From a bacterium (GTDB lineage: Bacteria; Bacillota_I; Bacilli_A; RFN20; CAG-826): a stretch of 64,000 nucleotides of DNA. Below the pieces are notes generated by a model. It searched no databases, was not told the DNA's origin, and was given only the letters and a program-made list of their open reading frames with translations. Position numbers and translations under genes: made by a program. The stretch lies in contig CAVIJK010000004.1 of NCBI GenBank assembly GCA_963643345.1, forward strand, positions 310 to 64,309, given 5' to 3'. Position 1 is the first letter of the stretch. Every line of letters starts with the position of its first letter. Shown piece by piece: positions 8,472-51,780 of the stretch.

Positions 8472-9980
8472 ATGGTCATTGCTTTAACTGGGTCTACAGG
8501 ATCCATGGGCAAGGAGACTTTAACGTCCTTGTCTGAGTTGAATGAAACGGTTCGCATTTTAATCAGGGATACTAAGAAGAACAGAAGATATGCCAAAAGA
8601 GCCAAGAAATTATTCGGTGGTCGATTGGAGGTCTTTTTTGGTGACATCATAAACTATGACGATTGTGTCGAATTCACAAAAAATGTTGATTATCTCTTAC
8701 ATTTAGCCGCGATTATACCGCCGAAAGCAGACCACGACGAAGAAAACACAATCGCCACAAACTACAATGGTACGAAAAATTTGGTCGATGCCGTCATTGC
8801 CAACGGCAACACCGCCAAATTCATTCACATATCCACCATCGCTCTATATGGCAATAGAAACGAGAAACACCCATACGGCAGAGTTGGCGATCCTCTTTTG
8901 GTGTCCGCATTCGATGTGTATGGCGCTTCAAAATTATACGGGGAGCGTTATTTGCTTGAATCAGGTTTGAAGAATTGGGCAGTTTTAAGACAAACAGGAA
9001 TCCTTTACGACAATCTCCTCATGAACAACATCAGCGATGGACTTATGTTTCATACCCCATGGAATGACCCTATCGAATGGGTAACCGCGAAAGATTCGGG
9101 AATCTTGATGAAAAACATAATCAAAAAAGACTCAGCAAATGAATGCCAAGCATTTTGGAAACGCGTTTATAACATCGGAGGTGGCGAGAAATGCCGCACT
9201 ACCGGATATGAAACATTTGATGATGGCTTCAAACTGATAGGCGGTTCAGTCAAAAAATTCTTTGAACCGCAATGGAATGCATATCAGAACTTTCATTGTT
9301 TCTGGTACGCTGATTCCGACATCCTTGAGAATATGTTTCATTTCAGAACGCAAGGATGCGAAGATTTTTGGAGTTGGTTTGCATCTAGACATAGAATTTA
9401 TTGGGCGGGGAGAATCGTTCCACCTTCGTTGTTAAGAGCAGCGATAATCAAACCACTTTTAAAGAATAACAATGCGCCGATGTACTGGAAAAATAACAAT
9501 CTTACCGCTAGAACATACGCAATTTGGGGCAAAAAAGATATCTCCAGTAAATGGGAAGATTTTGATTTGCTCTCAGAAAGAGGAAACTATCAGGAAATCA
9601 AGAAATGGAAAAAGGAGTATGACCTTGACCACGGATATGACGAAACCAAAGCCGACAGCGAGTTAGATATTGATGACATGAAACAAGCAGCAAATTTCCG
9701 CGGAGGAGAATGTTTATCCGAATCCATGGTTAAAGGTGACCTCTATACGAAGATCAAATGGAAATGCCACGATGGACACGAATTCATGTCTAGCCCATAT
9801 ACGATTTTAAAGGCAGGCCATTGGTGTCCGGAATGTTCCATGCCAAAAAAGAAATGGCAATTTGATAGATTGGCCAAAACGAACCCGTTCTTTGCACAGG
9901 TTTGGTATGATACCCACGATAAGGATGAGGAAATCACTTACGAAATAACAGAAAACGGCCCGGTAATGGAAAAGAAATAA
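8472..9980 (+). CDS. Extended SDR (NAD-dependent epimerase/dehydratase family) with a ~170-aa C-terminal extension ending in a zinc-ribbon-like module
   Basis: N-terminal Rossmann motif LTGSTGSMG and catalytic YGASK (YxxxK). C-terminal KWKCHDGHEF...GHWCPEC resembles a treble-clef/Zn-ribbon (DUF4379-like). Confidence 0.8.
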   Translation: MVIALTGSTGSMGKETLTSLSELNETVRILIRDTKKNRRYAKRAKKLFGGRLEVFFGDIINYDDCVEFTKNVDYLLHLAAIIPPKADHDEENTIATNYNGTKNLVDAVIANGNTAKFIHISTIALYGNRNEKHPYGRVGDPLLVSAFDVYGASKLYGERYLLESGLKNWAVLRQTGILYDNLLMNNISDGLMFHTPWNDPIEWVTAKDSGILMKNIIKKDSANECQAFWKRVYNIGGGEKCRTTGYETFDDGFKLIGGSVKKFFEPQWNAYQNFHCFWYADSDILENMFHFRTQGCEDFWSWFASRHRIYWAGRIVPPSLLRAAIIKPLLKNNNAPMYWKNNNLTARTYAIWGKKDISSKWEDFDLLSERGNYQEIKKWKKEYDLDHGYDETKADSELDIDDMKQAANFRGGECLSESMVKGDLYTKIKWKCHDGHEFMSSPYTILKAGHWCPECSMPKKKWQFDRLAKTNPFFAQVWYDTHDKDEEITYEITENGPVMEKK

Positions 9981-10831
9981 TGATTGGAATATACGTTTTC
10001 TCCGCAACAGGAAATACATATAAATGCGCCTCTTATATCAAAGAGGTTCTTTCTGGTACGGGGCAAGAAATAGAACTTAAAAGAATCGAGAATGGAAGTG
10101 AGACGGTAGATAAACATTATGAGACGCTTATCATTTGCTACCCAATCCATGGCTTTAATATGCCAACAAATGTATATTCATTCTGCAAGAATCTTAGAGA
10201 TGGAGCCGGGACAAATGTGTACTTTGTTGAATCATCCGGTGAGCCGCTCGAAATCAATCATGCCTCTTCGAAGAAAGCAGAGAAAGTCTTAACGAAGAAC
10301 GGTTTTAAATGCCTAGGCGATTACCACTACATCATGCCTTATAACATGATTTTCAAACACACAAACGAGATGGCCGCCAAAATGTGGGATGCCGCCAAAA
10401 GAAGAATTCGCGTGGATGCCATAAACATGACTGAGGCCAAACCGCATCATTTGAAAAGATCGCCATGGACAAAATTTGTTTGTTTTGTTGTAAGGATTGA
10501 ACATTGGGGCATGAGATTTAGCGGCCGTTTCTTCCATGTAAGAAAAAATAAGTGCATTAAATGCATGGCCTGCGTGCGGAATTGCCCAATGAAAAACATC
10601 ACTTACAATGAGGAAAAAGGCAAATTTAAATTCGGCGGCAAATGCCTTGGCTGTAATAGGTGTGCATTCCAGTGTCCAAAGGATGCAATATTCTTCGGAT
10701 TGATGGATTGGATGTCCGTAAATGGCCAGTACAACTTCAACGCGGATAAGGACAAGGCTATTATCGGAAAATACTGTCACAATGCATATGTCAAATATTT
10801 CAAAGAAACCGATGAACAGTATCCAAATTAA
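9980..10831 (+). CDS. Flavodoxin-like / 2x[4Fe-4S] ferredoxin-domain protein (EFR1-family-like)
   Basis: Its start overlaps the upstream stop (TAATG). Two CxxCxxCxxxCP motifs (CIKCMACVRNCP, CLGCNRCAFQCP) follow an N-terminal flavodoxin-like region. Confidence 0.8.
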   Translation: MIGIYVFSATGNTYKCASYIKEVLSGTGQEIELKRIENGSETVDKHYETLIICYPIHGFNMPTNVYSFCKNLRDGAGTNVYFVESSGEPLEINHASSKKAEKVLTKNGFKCLGDYHYIMPYNMIFKHTNEMAAKMWDAAKRRIRVDAINMTEAKPHHLKRSPWTKFVCFVVRIEHWGMRFSGRFFHVRKNKCIKCMACVRNCPMKNITYNEEKGKFKFGGKCLGCNRCAFQCPKDAIFFGLMDWMSVNGQYNFNADKDKAIIGKYCHNAYVKYFKETDEQYPN

Positions 10832-44562: not shown

Positions 44563-44808
44563 GCGTATGTTTTAAACAACCGCAAAAGATTAGGCAAGTA
44601 AAACGTATCCCATCACATAATTTTGCATTCATTTTAGTAAGTTATTTATGGCTAATCGGTAAATCGGTATAAGATTACCACTTTTGAATGATTGAAAGAA
44701 ACTTAGACGTTATCGAATATTTTTGTTTTACGCCTTTCGTTGTATACATTTATGCACTATGTGGAAACGCTTGCAGGTGCAATAATTTACATAAATAAGA
44801 GGCACTAT

Positions 44809-46110
44809 ATGATTGCAAAAACCACACAAATAGGTGGCGTAGACAATTTGCTTTCGAAACGTCCAGCCATACCGGCCCCAATACCAGACGCCGTCTTTAT
44901 TGCGGTCGAGAACGCCAGATGTCCAAAGGCAGATATCTATGTCAAAGAAGGTGACCACGTTAACCTTTGCCAAGTCATCGGTATGAGACATGGTCCTTTC
45001 TTCGACCAGCCAATCCACTCAACAGTCAGTGGCACAATGGTCAAAATCGAAAAGCATTATCACCGCTGCGGTAAACTCGTCAACTTCATGAAGATTGAAA
45101 ATGACCACCTTGATACGCTTGATTCATCGGTCAAAGATAGAACTCCAGAAGAGGTCGCTGCCTTAACCAAAGACGAAATGATCGAAATCATCAAGAACTG
45201 CGCTTGCGTGGGTTTAGGAGGCTCAGGGTTCCCGACCTACATCAAATTGCAGACAAAAGAAAAAATTAATCACATTTTAATCAACGGCATCGAGTGCGAA
45301 CCATATCTCGATACCGATCAAAGATTCATGCTCGACAAAACAAAAGAAATCTTTGGCGGAATGAAAATTCTTATGCAAATGTTTGATTGCAACGATGCAA
45401 GAATCTGCGTCAAGAATATCCACCCGGATATCATCAAACATTTAAATGAGATGATTGAAAAGTATTATCCAAATCAAGGGTTATCGGTTTCACCTATGAA
45501 GAACTTCTACCCGCAGGGATGGGAAGTCGCAATGGTCAAAACGGCTCTTGGCATAAAGATGGCCCCAGGAAAAATCCCTCCGGCATACGGAGTTATGAAC
45601 GTCAATGTCACCACCTGCGCATCTCTATATGATGCAATTTGGCATAACAGGCCAATCATCGAAAGATATATGTCAGTTAATGGAGACGGGATCAACGCCC
45701 CAAGCAACTTCGTCGTACGCATTGGTACCCCAGTCATCAATCTAGTTCATGCGGCAGGCGGGTATAAAGGAGACGAGAATAAGGTTCTTATCTTCGGGGG
45801 ACCTATGATGGGCGCGGCGCTTCCAAACGAAGACTGTATCGCAACCAAGACCGTCACGTCTCTCATCGTTATGAACGAGAGCAAAAAGCCAGAGGCTCCA
45901 TGCATTCATTGCGGATCGTGTGTTTTATCTTGTCCACAGGGACTTCAGCCGGTCCTGATTATGGAGGCAGTTAAGAGTGTGAACCGAGAGCGAATCAAGA
46001 TGCTCAATCCTCTCAATTGCATGGAATGCGGACTTTGCACATACAGCTGCACATCTGGCATCCGTGTCACCGATTTTGTAAGGAGGGCAAAGCTTTTGGC
46101 AAAGCTATAA
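44809..46110 (+). CDS. rnfC: Rnf electron-transport complex subunit C
   Basis: NADH/FMN-binding GLGGSGFPT, two 4Fe-4S motifs CIHCGSCVLSCP and CMECGLCTYSC. ATG 44809 follows AAGAGG; the ORF-track start 44740 has no SD. Confidence 0.93.
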   Translation: MIAKTTQIGGVDNLLSKRPAIPAPIPDAVFIAVENARCPKADIYVKEGDHVNLCQVIGMRHGPFFDQPIHSTVSGTMVKIEKHYHRCGKLVNFMKIENDHLDTLDSSVKDRTPEEVAALTKDEMIEIIKNCACVGLGGSGFPTYIKLQTKEKINHILINGIECEPYLDTDQRFMLDKTKEIFGGMKILMQMFDCNDARICVKNIHPDIIKHLNEMIEKYYPNQGLSVSPMKNFYPQGWEVAMVKTALGIKMAPGKIPPAYGVMNVNVTTCASLYDAIWHNRPIIERYMSVNGDGINAPSNFVVRIGTPVINLVHAAGGYKGDENKVLIFGGPMMGAALPNEDCIATKTVTSLIVMNESKKPEAPCIHCGSCVLSCPQGLQPVLIMEAVKSVNRERIKMLNPLNCMECGLCTYSCTSGIRVTDFVRRAKLLAKL

Positions 46111-46114
46111 AACT

Positions 46115-47167
46115 ATGCAATTTGTTAAAGAAACATCTCCACACATCAAACGCAAAGACTCCTTAATGATGATGCTCCTCAATGTGATAATCGCCTTGAT
46201 GCCTGTTGTGATATGGGCATTCGTGGCTTATCCATTATCTTGTTTACGCATCATCCCATTATCGCTAGTTACCTGCCTTTTGTGTGAATTTTTATTCGTT
46301 ATCATCACAAAGAAGGATCCAAAAGCCTTCAAGATCGAAAATATCCTATCATCAATTATTACCGCATTAATCTATGCGTTATGTTTGCCAACAGACCTAG
46401 GATTTGCATCGGGTACCGGATATTTCGTGGTAATTGCAGGCGCTGCAATAGGTATCGTTTTAGGTAAGTTAGTATTCGGAGGTCTAGGCAACAACATCTT
46501 CAATCCAGCAGCCTTAGGTATGATCGTTGTAAGACTCTTCTGGGGCGGCATATCAGGGGTAACAAAAGATTCCTCGATCTTTATTGATTCATCAATCACA
46601 ACGGGCGCAACAGCTTTAGCCTTTGACGATATCACAAATGTGAATCTCCTTGATTTGTTCCTTGGAAAAATCCCTGGCGCGCTAGGCGAAACTTTTCACA
46701 TCGCGATCATCATTGGACTCATCTATTTATTGATTACTAAGACAATCGATTGGAGAGTCTTAGTCTCCTACCTTGGCACATTCTTGGCCTTAACATTCAT
46801 CGCTGGACTTATCTATCAACTAAAAGGCGGTGCTAATTGTGTATATTATACGATTTATCAGTTAATGTCCGGCGGCGTTTTATTCGGAGCCGTTTATATG
46901 ATAACCGATCCTGTTACCGGTCCGGTTGGAAATCCAGCCAGAGTGTTATTCGGCGCATTTGCAGGTGTCATGACGGTCGTTATTCGTTTATTTGCCGGAA
47001 CAGAAGGCGTTGGGTTCTCAATCTTGTTCGCCAACATGATTGCTCCGGTTCTCAACTACCCACAATGGTCATCATCAAAATGGAAAAAGTGGCATTTCAT
47101 CACAGCTGGAGTTATGGCTTCGGTTGCGCTGCTTGTGGTCATCTTGCCGCTTGCCACATCTAAATAA
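46115..47167 (+). CDS. rnfD: Rnf complex subunit D
   Basis: 350-aa polytopic NqrB/RnfD-like protein with flavinylation motif TGAT (SSITTGATALAF). Confidence 0.92.
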   Translation: MQFVKETSPHIKRKDSLMMMLLNVIIALMPVVIWAFVAYPLSCLRIIPLSLVTCLLCEFLFVIITKKDPKAFKIENILSSIITALIYALCLPTDLGFASGTGYFVVIAGAAIGIVLGKLVFGGLGNNIFNPAALGMIVVRLFWGGISGVTKDSSIFIDSSITTGATALAFDDITNVNLLDLFLGKIPGALGETFHIAIIIGLIYLLITKTIDWRVLVSYLGTFLALTFIAGLIYQLKGGANCVYYTIYQLMSGGVLFGAVYMITDPVTGPVGNPARVLFGAFAGVMTVVIRLFAGTEGVGFSILFANMIAPVLNYPQWSSSKWKKWHFITAGVMASVALLVVILPLATSK

Positions 47168-47179
47168 GGGGGCACACAA

Positions 47180-47779
47180 ATGATTAAGAATACTTATATT
47201 AAATGTGCATTAGTCCTTGGGTGCATATGTGTAGCTTCTGCTGGATTAATCGGCGGATTAAACGCATTTGCAACATATTACAAAGCAAACCACAAATCGA
47301 CTGAAACACCATCCTCAATCAAAGCGTTGAAAGACGGAGCGACATTTGTTGAAGTAACAGATACGCTTCCGAAGGCAGTTATATCGAACTCAACCAAGGT
47401 TACCTTCGAATCAATCTATGCCCTCCAAGAAGAAGGGGAAACAACCGGATACGCATATATAGTCAACTGTTCGAAAGTTAAATCAAGCGACATTGAATTG
47501 TCCGTCCTTTATGAAGGCGCGGCAACAGAAGCGACGAAGAGCGCAGTTAAGCCAAGCGCAATCAACGTTATATCCGGCGGTGATATAGGCTACGACGTAA
47601 ATGTTCTGACTCTTGCGGAAACGATTCCAAACGGCACCGCGACAATGAACGATTACGCAAACGTTGTTACTGGCGGTACACAATCTCAGAAGTTCTTCAT
47701 CGACGGACTTCAGGTCGCAAGAGACGATTACGTCGTTAGAATCAACAGCAACTCTAACGTTCAAGACGTTGTTGGATAA
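47180..47779 (+). CDS. rnfG: Rnf complex subunit G (FMN-binding)
   Basis: N-terminal TM anchor, FMN_bind-like domain, flavinylation-type motif VTGGTQS near the C-terminus, and operon position. Confidence 0.85.
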   Translation: MIKNTYIKCALVLGCICVASAGLIGGLNAFATYYKANHKSTETPSSIKALKDGATFVEVTDTLPKAVISNSTKVTFESIYALQEEGETTGYAYIVNCSKVKSSDIELSVLYEGAATEATKSAVKPSAINVISGGDIGYDVNVLTLAETIPNGTATMNDYANVVTGGTQSQKFFIDGLQVARDDYVVRINSNSNVQDVVG

Positions 47780-47791
47780 GGAGGGAAGTTT

Positions 47792-48502
47792 ATGGATCAG
47801 AAACCCAGCAAATTAAGAGTCTTGTTAGACCCTCTACTTAAAGCGAATCCGTTATTCGTGATGATACTCGGGACATGCCCCGCTATCGCTGTTACAACAT
47901 CGGTTGAAGCCGCACTCGGAATGGGTATTCTCTTTACGTTCGTCGTCTTCTGCTCAAATCTCATCATCTCGTTGTTGCGGAACATTATCCCAGATGAGGT
48001 CAGAACCCCTTGCTATATTGTTGTTATCGCGACATTCGTCACTGTAGTGAAGATTCTAACTTCAACCTTCCTCCCAGCCTTATATAGTTCGCTTGGAGTC
48101 TTCATCTCGTTGCTCGTAGTCAACTGCATTGTCTTAGGGCGAGCAGAAGCGTTCGCTAGCAAGAACACCATTGTTGACTCAATGCTCGATGGACTCGGGA
48201 ACGGCCTTGGCTATACATGGGCCATTATGGCAATCGCTTTGGTCCGTGAAGTTCTAGGAACAGGCACATTGACATTTGGAAAAGTCTTCACGTTCATTCC
48301 TAAAGTCACAATCCCGATTCTTTCTGGATATAAGGGGACAAAATTCTCAATGGCAATACCACTACTTAATTCTTCAGCCGGTGGCTTCTTAGTCCTGGGT
48401 TTGGCCTTGGCAATCATTGCCGCTGTCAATAACTACAAAAACAAGAAGGCTAAAGAAAAAGCCAGAGCAGCCAAAGCGGCTGCTAAAGGAGGCGCAAAAT
48501 AA
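47792..48502 (+). CDS. rnfE: Rnf complex subunit E
   Basis: NqrD/RnfE-like polytopic protein (NPLFVMILGTCPA). Lys/Ala-rich C-terminal tail. Confidence 0.92.
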   Translation: MDQKPSKLRVLLDPLLKANPLFVMILGTCPAIAVTTSVEAALGMGILFTFVVFCSNLIISLLRNIIPDEVRTPCYIVVIATFVTVVKILTSTFLPALYSSLGVFISLLVVNCIVLGRAEAFASKNTIVDSMLDGLGNGLGYTWAIMAIALVREVLGTGTLTFGKVFTFIPKVTIPILSGYKGTKFSMAIPLLNSSAGGFLVLGLALAIIAAVNNYKNKKAKEKARAAKAAAKGGAK

Positions 48503-49104
48503 TGCAATACATAGTTTCCTTTATACTCGCTATTGTCTCCTATATGGTAATCGACAATGTCATTCTCTCCAGATATTTTGGAATTTGTTCCTTTGTTGGT
48601 GTTGGAAATAAAGTCAAATCAGCGGTAGGAATGGGCTTAGCGGTTCTCTTTGTCATCGTGATGTCATCGCTAGTATGTTGGCCGCTCTACACCTTTATTC
48701 TTGTGCCAGCCGGAATGGAATATATGGAGACTATCGTCTTCATCCTCGTCATCGCCTCGCTTGTCCAGATGGTTGGGTTCTTTATCAAGAAGAAATCAAT
48801 CAGCTTGTACAAGACTCTCGGCATCTATTTGCCTCTAATCACCACTAATTGCGCGGTTCTAGGAGTCGTTGAAACCAACATGGCTTACGATTTTGGACGT
48901 TCAATGGCAAACGCATTGGGAACATCATTGGGTTTTGTTCTCGTCATCTTCTTATTCGCTTGCATACGTGTCAAGCTTGAAGGCTCGGATATTCCAAAAG
49001 CATTTAAAGGTGTTCCAATCGCACTAATCCTTGCTGGACTTATGGCCGTCGTCTTCATGGGACTGAGTGGTATCATCGACGTTGGTTCCTGGGGACTCAT
49101 ATAA
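48502..49104 (+). CDS. rnfA: Rnf complex subunit A
   Basis: NqrE/RnfA-like polytopic protein (LPLITTNCAVLGV). Its start overlaps the rnfE stop. Confidence 0.92.
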   Translation: MQYIVSFILAIVSYMVIDNVILSRYFGICSFVGVGNKVKSAVGMGLAVLFVIVMSSLVCWPLYTFILVPAGMEYMETIVFILVIASLVQMVGFFIKKKSISLYKTLGIYLPLITTNCAVLGVVETNMAYDFGRSMANALGTSLGFVLVIFLFACIRVKLEGSDIPKAFKGVPIALILAGLMAVVFMGLSGIIDVGSWGLI

Positions 49105-49349
49105 TGAATCAAACGGGCTATATAATACTAACCATCGCAATAGTGGTAATTCTGGTCGCAATCTTCGTATTCAGTTTTGTGGTTTACGTTAAAACGCCAG
49201 CCCCAAAAGGCTGTGAAAGAGGCAAAGGGCCAAATTGCGAAAACTGCGATCAGGCAAGTTGCAAATTCTATGCATACGCAGAGGAACTGGCAGAAAAGAA
49301 ACGTCTAGAGGCCGAAATGAAAGCCTCTACCGAGAAAGGGAATGAATAA
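49104..49349 (+). CDS. Small single-pass membrane protein with cytoplasmic C-x8-C-x2-C-x5-C motif, embedded in the rnf operon
   Basis: 81 aa. One TM helix (YIILTIAIVVILVAIFVFSFVVYV), then CERGKGPNCENCDQASC, then a charged tail. Its start overlaps the rnfA stop (TAATG) and its end overlaps the rnfB start by 8 nt. Confidence 0.65.
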   Translation: MNQTGYIILTIAIVVILVAIFVFSFVVYVKTPAPKGCERGKGPNCENCDQASCKFYAYAEELAEKKRLEAEMKASTEKGNE

Positions 49350-49668
49350 CATGGATATTTTATGGGCAGTCTTATTAATGTTAGGCTTAGCGGTTGGTTT
49401 ATCGTGCTTAATCGTTTTATTCTCCATCATATTCCACGTCGAGGAAGATCCGAGAATCGATAAAGTCGCAAGCATGCTCCCAGGAGCAAACTGCGGCGCC
49501 TGTGGCAAGGCGGGATGCCGCGATTTAGCCGAGTCGCTTGTCACTGGCGAAATCAAGAAAGTCACTACCTGCAAAGCCGGAAGAAAAGATAAGAACTTCG
49601 ATCCGATAATCACTTATCTAAAGGAAACTCCAGGACCGGACGGAAAGACAGTGGACGTCACAATGTAA
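49342..49668 (+). CDS. rnfB: Short RnfB: membrane anchor plus N-terminal Fe-S domain only, no 2x[4Fe-4S] ferredoxin domains
   Basis: 108 aa. One TM helix, then the LPGANCGACGKAGCRDLAESL...C RnfB-type cluster motif. The ORF stops (49666-49668) and a terminator follows directly. Confidence 0.8.
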   Translation: MNNMDILWAVLLMLGLAVGLSCLIVLFSIIFHVEEDPRIDKVASMLPGANCGACGKAGCRDLAESLVTGEIKKVTTCKAGRKDKNFDPIITYLKETPGPDGKTVDVTM

Positions 49669-49676
49669 TATTGATT

Positions 49677-49700
49677 AGGACACTTTGTGTCCTTTTCTTT
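49677..49700 (+). terminator. Terminator after rnfB
   Basis: AGGACAC-TTT-GTGTCCT (49677-49693) followed by a TTTTCTTT tract. Confidence 0.8.
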
Positions 49701-49739
49701 CGCTTGTAGTAAGTTTTACACCCTATTATCATAATAATC

Positions 49740-50762
49740 ATGAAAAGAAGAATCGGCCTTATTTTATTAGCCCCTTTAATCCTTGCCGGTTGCAGTAACA
49801 AAATTGGAGAAACCTATAGCTCCACCGCTATCGTTTTCAATAGTTTTTTCACCTGCAAATACTTTTCAAACGCCGGTTCACTAAATGATGAGATAAACGC
49901 AACCGTCAACAAAATCAATCAATTGGCAGACCCATACACGGATTATAACGGGCTGAATAACTTATATAAAATCAATGAAACCAATGAGGCAATTACAGTT
50001 GACCCAATTCTTTTTGATTTGGTTAAAACCGCTATGGATTTGTATCAAAAAACCGAACACAACTTCAATCCGTTCATCGGCAAGATAACTAGCGTTTGGA
50101 AAACGGTCTTATTTGGAGAGAGCGGTGACTCATCATTCAGCGGGCCCACCGTTTCATCAATCGAGGAGACGAAAGCTCTGATACCATCTCTTTTGAATGA
50201 GGCAAATTCCACAAGTGTGCTTCTCAATGAAGACAACTGTACCATAACCAGAGTCGGCCAAGGCCATATTGATTTAGGAGGCTTAACCAAAGGCTATGCC
50301 GTTGAGCAAGTGAAAAAGATGCTTAAGGCAAAAGATATCGGGGTTTATTTAGTCAATGGCGGCCAGAGCTCTTTGGGACTAGGCAAAACCCAAGATGGCG
50401 GGGAATTCAAAGTGGATCTCAAATATTCAAAAGAACAATATGAGAATAGATACTCTCTAGGAGAAATTGATACATCCACCTCCGCAATATATGAGCAATC
50501 AATCATCGTGGATGGCACAACCTATTCGCATATCATCAACCCAACAACAGGCATGCCATTGACGGCTTATTCGATGGCTTTTTTGGTGGGCGAGGATAGC
50601 ACGCTTCTAGACGCTTTCTCTACATCATGCATAATCGCAGGACCGGAAAAGGCAGAAGAATGGGGCAACAAATACGGATTCTCCTATTCTCTATTCAAAG
50701 ATGATGGAGGTTATACAAAACTAGTTAAAGAATCTGATTCATTGAGCAAGGCTAGAATTTAA
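49740..50762 (+). CDS. apbE: FAD:protein FMN transferase (ApbE family) lipoprotein
   Basis: Signal peptide with lipobox ILAGC-SN and ApbE-like motifs (DLGGLTKGYA, YSHIINPTTG). Confidence 0.9.
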   Translation: MKRRIGLILLAPLILAGCSNKIGETYSSTAIVFNSFFTCKYFSNAGSLNDEINATVNKINQLADPYTDYNGLNNLYKINETNEAITVDPILFDLVKTAMDLYQKTEHNFNPFIGKITSVWKTVLFGESGDSSFSGPTVSSIEETKALIPSLLNEANSTSVLLNEDNCTITRVGQGHIDLGGLTKGYAVEQVKKMLKAKDIGVYLVNGGQSSLGLGKTQDGGEFKVDLKYSKEQYENRYSLGEIDTSTSAIYEQSIIVDGTTYSHIINPTTGMPLTAYSMAFLVGEDSTLLDAFSTSCIIAGPEKAEEWGNKYGFSYSLFKDDGGYTKLVKESDSLSKARI

Positions 50763-51235
50763 TGGTCATAGAAGAAACGCAAACGCAATCTAACAAAACA
50801 CCAAGGAAAAAGAAGAATTTCTTCTTAAAACACCTTTGGGATTTTATTCTCTTGGGCGTTCTTTTAATTGGTACATCTGCGTTTTATATCGCTAGAGCCA
50901 TATCCAAGGGAAGCGCCACTAATGAAGACATCTCCGCGACGATCCTCTATGAAGGGAAAGCAATTGAAATACTGGACTCCAGGGGAAAGAATAGAAACCC
51001 TCTCAACTTGGAAGAGATTGAAAACTACGAGGAAATCGAAATCAATGGAAAACACACAACTTTAATTATAGGCGTCAAACACAACGCCATATGCGTAGTT
51101 AAATCTGGATGTCCGGGACAGGAATGCGTGCATGAAGGGTGGATAAGCGAGGCAAACCATCCGATAATCTGTGCGCATAACGAAATTTATATAGAGGTAT
51201 CCACTAGCGATTGGGGAGATATATCCCAAGGATAG
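50762..51235 (+). CDS. NusG domain II-containing membrane-anchored protein (DUF1312-like)
   Basis: 157 aa. N-terminal TM anchor. C-terminal SGCPGQECVHEGWISEANHPIICAHNEIYIEV matches the CPxxxC...W...C.HN pattern of NusG_II proteins. Its start overlaps the apbE stop. Confidence 0.75.
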   Translation: MVIEETQTQSNKTPRKKKNFFLKHLWDFILLGVLLIGTSAFYIARAISKGSATNEDISATILYEGKAIEILDSRGKNRNPLNLEEIENYEEIEINGKHTTLIIGVKHNAICVVKSGCPGQECVHEGWISEANHPIICAHNEIYIEVSTSDWGDISQG

Positions 51236-51237
51236 TT

Positions 51238-51780
51238 ATGAAAGGTAAGTTTGGTATTAAACAAATCGCACTCATTGCAATGCTATTATCCCTCGCTTTA
51301 GTGTTAAGCATTGCTGAGAGTTTCATTCCTTTTGGCATACCGGGATTAAAACTCGGATTGGCGAATATGGTTATATTGCTAGCCATATATTACTTCGGAT
51401 TCTGGGTTGCATTGGCAATTGATGTTTTGAGAGTATTTATATCTTCGATTGCTTTGGGCACTTTCCTCGCAATGGGCTTTGCAATGTCCATGGCAGGCGC
51501 TTTATTAAGCTTCTTTATCATGTACGTATTCTATCGTTGGTTAAAGATGTTTACTCCGGTTGGAATTTCAATTGCAGGGGCATACTCCCATGCCTTAGCC
51601 CAAATTTTCGTAGGTGTAATTTATTTAGGTACCTGGGGCGTTTTCTATTATTTCCCCGTTATGGCTCTAGCCTCCTTAATTAGCGGTACATTCAATGGCA
51701 TTGTCGTTGAACTAATCTTAAATAACAAATATTTGTCCACCGTTGTCGGATATGTAAATAGAGAAGAAAACAACAATTGA
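51238..51780 (+). CDS. Gx transporter family protein (Hpre_diP_synt_I-like membrane protein)
   Basis: ~180 aa with 5 TM helices. LALVLSIAESFIPFGIPGLKLGLANMVILLAIY is typical of this family. ATG 51238 is 3 nt after the upstream stop. Confidence 0.8.
   Translation: MKGKFGIKQIALIAMLLSLALVLSIAESFIPFGIPGLKLGLANMVILLAIYYFGFWVALAIDVLRVFISSIALGTFLAMGFAMSMAGALLSFFIMYVFYRWLKMFTPVGISIAGAYSHALAQIFVGVIYLGTWGVFYYFPVMALASLISGTFNGIVVELILNNKYLSTVVGYVNREENNN

Follow-up and report, generated by a model that had tools for sequence, protein, structure and literature searches.

A minimal, probably functional RnfB shared by a branch of the Bacilli, and a small cysteine-containing protein encoded next to it

In current structural models of the Rnf complex, ferredoxin docks on the multi-cluster C-terminal module of RnfB, a domain of two to seven clusters that a 2025 review describes as the ferredoxin acceptor (PMC12174285). 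RnfB also carries a mobile single-[4Fe-4S] domain, named FdI in Clostridium tetanomorphum (PMC9588780), which sits on a flexible tether (PMC12174285). Vitt et al. 2022 suggested that FdI swings as a shuttle towards the RnfA/E centre and noted its likeness to the N-terminal [4Fe-4S] domain of the corrinoid iron-sulfur protein (CFeSP; PMC9588780); in Acetobacterium woodii the same unit was defined as the B8 domain (residues 30-100), which slots in between RnfA and RnfE (Kumar et al. 2025, PMC11889175). Here we analyse an rnf operon in which RnfB has FdI but lacks the C-terminal module. It lies in a 64,000-nucleotide stretch (the window; positions 310 to 64,309 of contig CAVIJK010000004.1, assembly GCA_963643345.1) from a bacterium of GTDB lineage Bacilli_A; RFN20; CAG-826. 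Positions are those of the window and features are on the forward strand, unless stated otherwise. The operon has the order rnfC-D-G-E-A-(mini)-B, where mini stands for an 81-aa protein, and its last gene, rnfB (49342..49668), encodes 108 aa (11.6 kDa).

An RnfB of this minimal type has been described in Thermotoga maritima, as a 10.56 kDa protein predicted to hold a single 4Fe-4S centre (Kuhns et al. 2020, PMC7414866), and Vitt et al. 2022 likewise assign T. maritima an FdI-only architecture (PMC9588780). With reduced ferredoxin of C. pasteurianum as electron donor, both T. maritima membranes and the purified preparation reduced NAD+, and after reconstitution the enzyme pumped Na+ (PMC7414866). 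The locus in the window resembles this system in its rnfCDGEAB gene order and in an RnfB of ∼10–12 kDa made of a membrane anchor and just one domain predicted to bind a [4Fe-4S] cluster, with no polyferredoxin module; T. maritima is also, in the same way, a fermenter making reduced ferredoxin. As judged from sequence, the RnfB analysed here belongs to the published FdI-only kind, found in another phylum and spread across a whole clade.

The two N-terminal elements of an RnfB, a membrane helix and a four-cysteine domain, are both present. The anchor, residues 3-30 (49348..49431), is a helix in the AlphaFold2 model and aligns to the transmembrane helix of 9eri_B and 7zc6_B. The only Pfam match in the 108 residues is to PF04060 (FeS; residues 46-77, E 2.1e-10), with no Fer4-type match; the cysteine spacing CX2CX4CX17C (C51, C54, C59 and C77) makes one [4Fe-4S] motif, and this domain core (49477..49572) is defined alike by Pfam, alignment and fold match. 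The model, built with 22 homologues, has a predicted local distance difference test score (pLDDT) of 84.9, with 87–96 in the membrane helix; beyond this helix lies a small helical domain made up of helices 37-45, 59-68, 78-81 and 87-95. The best Foldseek matches of the model in the PDB were to the CFeSP N-terminal [4Fe-4S] domain (4c1n_G, 4djd_C, 2ycl_A). RnfB chains were not retrieved, probably for lack of a modelled or well-resolved FdI in them. The protein ends ∼30 residues past the fourth cluster cysteine, after a segment (49573..49665) that alignment of the short forms and comparison of charge divide into a basic patch (KAGRKDK) and a conserved tail, YLxxTPGPDG.

The long RnfB and RsxB proteins of known structure, from A. 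woodii (9eri_B, 333 aa), C. tetanomorphum (7zc6_B, 274 aa) and A. vinelandii (8ahx_B, 174 aa), align to residues ∼6-80 only, but do so residue for residue. They share the N-terminal membrane helix, the mobile CX2CX4CX17C domain and the operon position. The NCBIfam RnfB models similarly aligned over only their first ∼80 positions; TIGR01944 gave 54.1 bits, under its cut-off of 68.7, and covered model positions 5-80 of 190. What the short form lacks is the C-terminal domain with its 2–7 clusters, which is the presumed ferredoxin dock and also touches RnfC, and no C-terminal 2x[4Fe-4S] ferredoxin domain was found in it. The long and short forms also differ just past the fourth cysteine, where the long forms have CP(V)GG and the short ones CK(P/V)GKK. 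The short gene closes an rnfCDGEA(B) operon with intact partner subunits, an arrangement repeated in at least 30 related loci. The 108 residues thus comprise a membrane helix and the whole FdI/B8 domain, which makes the protein an RnfB of an already known kind. An earlier note on this DNA, made from the letters alone, had read rnfB correctly in these respects. It had also placed a strong terminator directly after the gene: a terminator-like hairpin, AGGACAC-TTT-GTGTCCT, followed by a T-run (49677..49703) does lie 3′ of the stop codon, but the hairpin (49677-49693; 7 pairs, 4 of them G-C) is moderate, and terminator-like sites showed no enrichment over shuffles.

The short form is widespread. 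A word-indexed search gave 260 short homologues of 96–127 aa. In an exhaustive search of representatives, full-length matches (query 4-107) fell in proteins of 105–111 aa, whereas long RnfBs, of 266–393 aa, matched only query residues ∼5-85. Among 61 genomes of the same order, 50 had a PF04060 match, and all RnfB-type frames were 102–132 aa. Across 250 genomes of the class nearly all such frames were 86–133 aa and just two were long (268 and 273 aa). In a separate scan the named carriers of the short form were Acholeplasmataceae, Erysipelotrichaceae, Izemoplasma, Candidatus Onthovivens, Solobacterium and Anaerorhabdus. In the same scan, RnfBs from other phyla were 265–390 aa, except in two Bacteroidales metagenome-assembled genomes (138 and 140 aa).

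The short proteins are also conserved in detail. In an alignment of 22 of them the four cluster cysteines are invariant, as are I89, Y92 and G101 in the tail, with L93, P97 and D100 near-invariant. The proportion of nonsynonymous differences (pN) in rnfB was 0.05–0.33, against 0.70–1.02 for synonymous ones (pS), whose sites are saturated, indicating purifying selection. A tree was built from concatenated RnfC, RnfE and RnfA of 50 operons, 30 with short and 20 with long RnfB (830 columns). All 30 short-RnfB operons formed one clade, with a Shimodaira-Hasegawa-like approximate likelihood ratio (SH-aLRT) support of 100, and the 20 long ones fell outside it. Among the latter were two long-RnfB operons of the same class, one of which grouped with Clostridia. 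Since all short operons make up one clade, the shortening needs only one change: a single loss of the multi-cluster C-terminal module in the ancestral Rnf operon of Erysipelotrichaceae, Acholeplasmataceae, Izemoplasma and related gut Bacilli.

The earlier note had taken the short RnfB as a departure from the usual form, and had suggested aligning it with RnfB orthologues and checking their lengths. By that comparison an RnfB of ∼100 aa is, on the evidence of order, class and tree, the inherited norm of a whole Bacilli branch and not an oddity of one genome. A short RnfB in a well-characterised functional Rnf clade, which the note had named as speaking against its reading, is largely supplied by T. 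maritima (PMC7414866, PMC9588780). The short gene is normal and deserves annotation as a functional RnfB and not as a fragment.

Several other PF04060 proteins were seen in these scans. The two Bacteroidales frames (L049 and L056) have unrelated tails; RnfB of this phylum is otherwise ∼290–330 aa, and the two may be independent shortenings or reflect an assembly problem. Some genomes of the class to which the window belongs (G123, G145, G156 and G095; proteins P0125 and P0129) encode RnfB-like proteins of 148–194 aa with two tandem PF04060 domains after the membrane helix and no Fer4. The remaining PF04060 matches in the order were to ∼560–630-aa proteins of a different kind, with an internal PF04060 and Fer4 motifs, which occur in many relatives (for example, G021:C5:95644-95733 and G054:C4:85471-85560) and are absent from the source genome of the window. 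One locus (L018, G193:C1:604000-623800) has two short-RnfB operons separated by ∼5 kb; for the first of them, rnfD-G-E-A-B, neither RnfC nor the mini-protein frame was recovered by phmmer.

The module missing from RnfB is not encoded elsewhere in the source genome (1.56 Mb, 98% complete). Cysteine-motif scans of all open reading frames (ORFs), Fer4_7 and PF04060 searches, and phmmer revealed no split RnfB C-terminus, the PF04060 match was single, and no stand-alone polyferredoxin was found. With the C-termini of six long RnfBs as phmmer queries, only generic Fer4 matches of ≤25 bits were obtained, and a split-off C-terminal RnfB gene was accordingly rejected. Ferredoxin-type motifs in this genome are confined to RnfC, pyruvate:ferredoxin oxidoreductase (PFOR), a GltD-like protein, two aldo-keto reductases, a NapH-like protein, an EFR1-family protein and a 60-aa ferredoxin. 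The earlier note had reported the polyferredoxin domains as missing from RnfB and its neighbourhood, and the genome search it proposed extends that absence to the whole assembly. Because the polyferredoxin part is absent and not encoded elsewhere, the electron-input interface must differ from that of long RnfBs, as the note had supposed.

A route for electrons into this complex can be proposed from the proteins at hand. The genome encodes a PFOR of 1193 aa and one small soluble ferredoxin, a 60-aa single-cluster protein (CIGCGAC...CP; outside the window, at C9:23162-23341, minus strand) with a net charge of −9 and a pI of 4.05. PFOR would reduce this acidic ferredoxin, which would then dock directly on the tethered FdI, helped by the conserved Lys-rich patch near the fourth cysteine. 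FdI could next swing into the cytoplasmic groove of RnfA/E and reduce the intramembrane [2Fe-2S] cluster, from which electrons would pass by way of RnfG-FMN, RnfD and RnfC to NAD+, coupled to Na+/H+ export. The four cysteine ligands of the RnfA/E [2Fe-2S] site are kept (C29 and C117 in RnfA, C29 and C112 in RnfE). We infer that ferredoxin docks directly on FdI and that the basic patch takes part in this, and consider it likely that the gene encodes an intact, functional, minimal RnfB on whose mobile single-cluster FdI the 60-aa ferredoxin docks directly. The ten residues past the fourth cluster cysteine are basic in short RnfBs (CK(P/V)GKK; mean +1.5, n = 44) and neutral to acidic in long ones (CP(V)GG; mean −0.64, n = 64; Mann-Whitney p 1e-13), in a comparison that is phylogenetically non-independent, the short forms being one clade.

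That non-independence is one of several points that weigh against direct docking on FdI. The 60-aa ferredoxin occurs in 58 of the 61 relatives, including genomes without Rnf, so that it is available but not specifically linked to the complex, and so nearly universal a distribution is uninformative on an Rnf-specific partnership. The Bacilli clade is known from genes alone, and the support from activity comes from T. maritima, which belongs to a different phylum and whose likeness to the present locus is drawn from its published description, not from sequence comparison. In the T. maritima preparation, moreover, mass spectrometry identified RnfC, RnfD and RnfG only, and RnfB was not directly shown (PMC7414866). 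Finally, the mini-protein is nearly exclusive to operons with short RnfB, and the input site may comprise more than FdI.

As far as RnfB is concerned, what the analysis adds is mostly clarification. A whole branch of the Bacilli, common gut and oral genera included, has an Rnf without the C-terminal module on which the structural models place ferredoxin, as does T. maritima; since Rnf runs without that module, the mobile single-cluster domain must suffice to receive electrons. Members of the clade are mesophilic, some of them in culture, and would allow the contact between ferredoxin and a minimal RnfB to be studied. The clade also carries an unannotated micro-protein, possibly an extra subunit or an assembly factor. 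Whereas the RnfB form has been published, this mini-protein appears to be undescribed.

The mini-protein (81 aa; 49104..49349) has an N-terminal membrane helix followed by the segment KTPAPKGCE-x8-CxxC-x5-C. Its start codon overlaps the rnfA stop (TAATG) and its own stop overlaps the rnfB start. Of 45 short-RnfB operons, 39 carry the gene, whereas it is missing from all 23 long ones with adjacent rnfA and rnfB. A 30-member profile of the protein matched solely ORFs in the gap between rnfA and rnfB; the source genome has no second copy. Of the cysteines, C45 and C48 never vary and C53 hardly ever does; in some members the first one is replaced or a histidine is added. With pN far below pS, selection is purifying. 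In the tree the gene occurs in both branches of the first split within the short clade, with two losses (one in L023, one in L014, L029 and L061). Its origin thus falls at about the node where RnfB became short, and since two sub-lineages have lost it, it is dispensable.

No curated family matched the mini-protein, and the only sub-threshold match that recurred was to PF12669 (FeoB_associated). Five of the 30 members gave such weak matches, the best at 18.9 bits against a gathering threshold of 27 bits, and membership is thus not supported. PF12669 proteins share with it a membrane helix and a short cysteine motif, and are prevalent in Firmicutes. They have the pattern Cx3-5Cx2-3Cx6-8C and are commonly tied to iron binding (PMC8749426). 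The mini-protein differs from them in its cysteine spacing and in not lying beside feoB. A second comparison is with NqrM (DUF539, PF04400), which reportedly combines one membrane helix with four conserved cysteines and probably supplies iron to the NqrD/E centre, itself homologous to the RnfA/E [2Fe-2S] cluster. A recent review describes NqrM as a small membrane-bound Fe-S maturation protein encoded in the nqr operon next to apbE (2025 review, PMC12174285). The mini-protein has the same single membrane helix, conserved cysteines and place in a pump operon near apbE, a resemblance of architecture only: five members gave no PF04400 match at E ≤ 10, nor did 30 members at E ≤ 0.05, and it was rejected as a member of the NqrM family. 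Its operon position differs from that of nqrM, and an assembly-factor role alone leaves unexplained why the gene is absent from long-RnfB operons.

The mini-protein is most likely, to judge from its gene and sequence, an accessory of the Rnf complex, either a small extra subunit or an NqrM-like helper in metal or Fe-S assembly. We hold it possible, though only tentatively, that the 'minimal-input' Rnf of Erysipelotrichaceae, Acholeplasmataceae, Izemoplasma and related gut Bacilli has in this protein a genuine seventh component, as a metal or Fe-S subunit sharing the ferredoxin entry with FdI or as the first Rnf-specific NqrM counterpart, loading the [2Fe-2S] cluster. The stronger proposal, that it is a seventh and redox-active subunit whose membrane-proximal motif of three or four cysteines (plus histidine) holds an Fe or Fe-S centre and with FdI makes an electron entry or relay site in place of the polyferredoxin module, seems to us unlikely, although several points favour it: the position between rnfA and rnfB in short operons only, the translational coupling to both neighbours, the conserved cysteines and KTPxPxGCE segment directly past the membrane helix, the purifying selection, and the gain on the same basal branch as the shortening of RnfB. 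The co-occurrence of the two features is a single evolutionary event, however, and carries no statistical weight for a functional link. Two sub-lineages with short RnfB and the full operon have lost the gene, several members have only three cysteines, and in the AlphaFold2 model only the membrane helix is confident, the cysteine region having a pLDDT of 55–67 and no defined fold. In addition, T. maritima Rnf accepts ferredoxin with an FdI-only RnfB gene (PMC7414866). The earlier note had listed this Cys-rich protein as a candidate partner of RnfB; it does travel only with short RnfB, and is still a plausible candidate.

Another way of supplying electrons would be to dispense with free ferredoxin, PFOR or a flavodoxin reducing the tethered FdI as if it were a membrane-bound ferredoxin. 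PFOR has a ferredoxin-like domain of its own, a flavodoxin-like protein of 185 aa is encoded on contig C42 of the source genome, and the flexible tether of FdI (PMC12174285) would suit such an arrangement. We nevertheless think it quite improbable, given the conserved soluble ferredoxin of the 58 relatives, the acceptance of free clostridial ferredoxin by T. maritima Rnf (PMC7414866) and the lack, in the window, of any gene linkage of rnf with PFOR or flavodoxin.

A separate soluble Fe-S protein might instead dock on the complex as a surrogate C-terminal module. The candidate, also put forward in the earlier note as a supplier of the missing interface, is the EFR1-family protein at 9980-10831 (NF038196, 125.8 bits), in which a flavodoxin domain is fused to a 2x[4Fe-4S] dicluster ferredoxin domain. 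It is the best match in the source genome to the C-termini of long RnfBs, yet at 19–25 bits the similarity is of the generic Fer4 type, and RnfC, PFOR and the GltD-like protein score equally. Its gene lies 39 kb from the rnf operon. The family is also patchy, reaching its cut-off in only 24 of the 61 relatives, with no match in seven that have Rnf (G001, G012, G014, G020, G024, G027 and G028). An obligatory partnership was rejected on this lack of co-conservation, and a surrogate role is very unlikely. Least credible of all, and on the conservation data already refuted, is a truncated rnfB (pseudogene, frameshift or assembly artefact) in an Rnf that is being dismantled, for which only the contrast in length with textbook RnfBs speaks, against the same length and stop-proximal motif in hundreds of homologues from independent assemblies, the purifying selection on rnfB, and the intact state of the five other subunits, all cofactor motifs and apbE.

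We now describe the remaining genes of the operon, whose order and completeness the earlier note had given correctly, down to the flavinylation motifs of RnfD and RnfG and the two motifs of RnfC. The gene for the NAD(H)-side subunit, rnfC (44740..46110), scores 330.8 bits with TIGR01945, above the cut-off, and has the Pfam domains RnfC_N, Complex1_51K, SLBB and Fer4_7 and two CxxCxxCxxxC motifs; its true start is probably the ATG at 44809, giving ∼433 aa as in relatives. It is followed by rnfD (46115..47167; PF03116, E 6.4e-73), with a TGAT flavinylation motif in the translation, and by a divergent rnfG (47180..47779), identified from its place between rnfD and rnfE and from TGGT near the C-terminus (VVTGGTQSQ). 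RnfG gave no Pfam FMN_bind match even at E ≤ 10, and as a phmmer query it recovered RnfG in one related locus only. The genes rnfE (47792..48502; PF02508, E 5.1e-58; NF009070, 227 bits) and rnfA (48502..49104; PF02508, E 6.9e-51; TIGR01943, 219.5 bits) complete the set. Among the related loci, four (L014, L019, L021 and L032) have enlarged RnfD frames of 476–637 aa, which may be RnfD-RnfG fusions, and in L117 RnfG is a giant protein of 1412 aa with a faint FMN_bind match.

Downstream of the hairpin lies apbE (49740..50762; PF02424, E 4.3e-43), whose product, a flavin transferase, would flavinylate RnfD and RnfG; apbE adjoins rnf in many related loci. It is followed by genes for a NusG_II-domain protein (50762-51235; PF07009) and a Hpre_diP_synt_I membrane protein (51211-51780; PF07456). 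This trio (49740-51780) is also found 3′ of rnf in L021, L030, L031, L032 and L117, and accompanies short- as well as long-RnfB operons.

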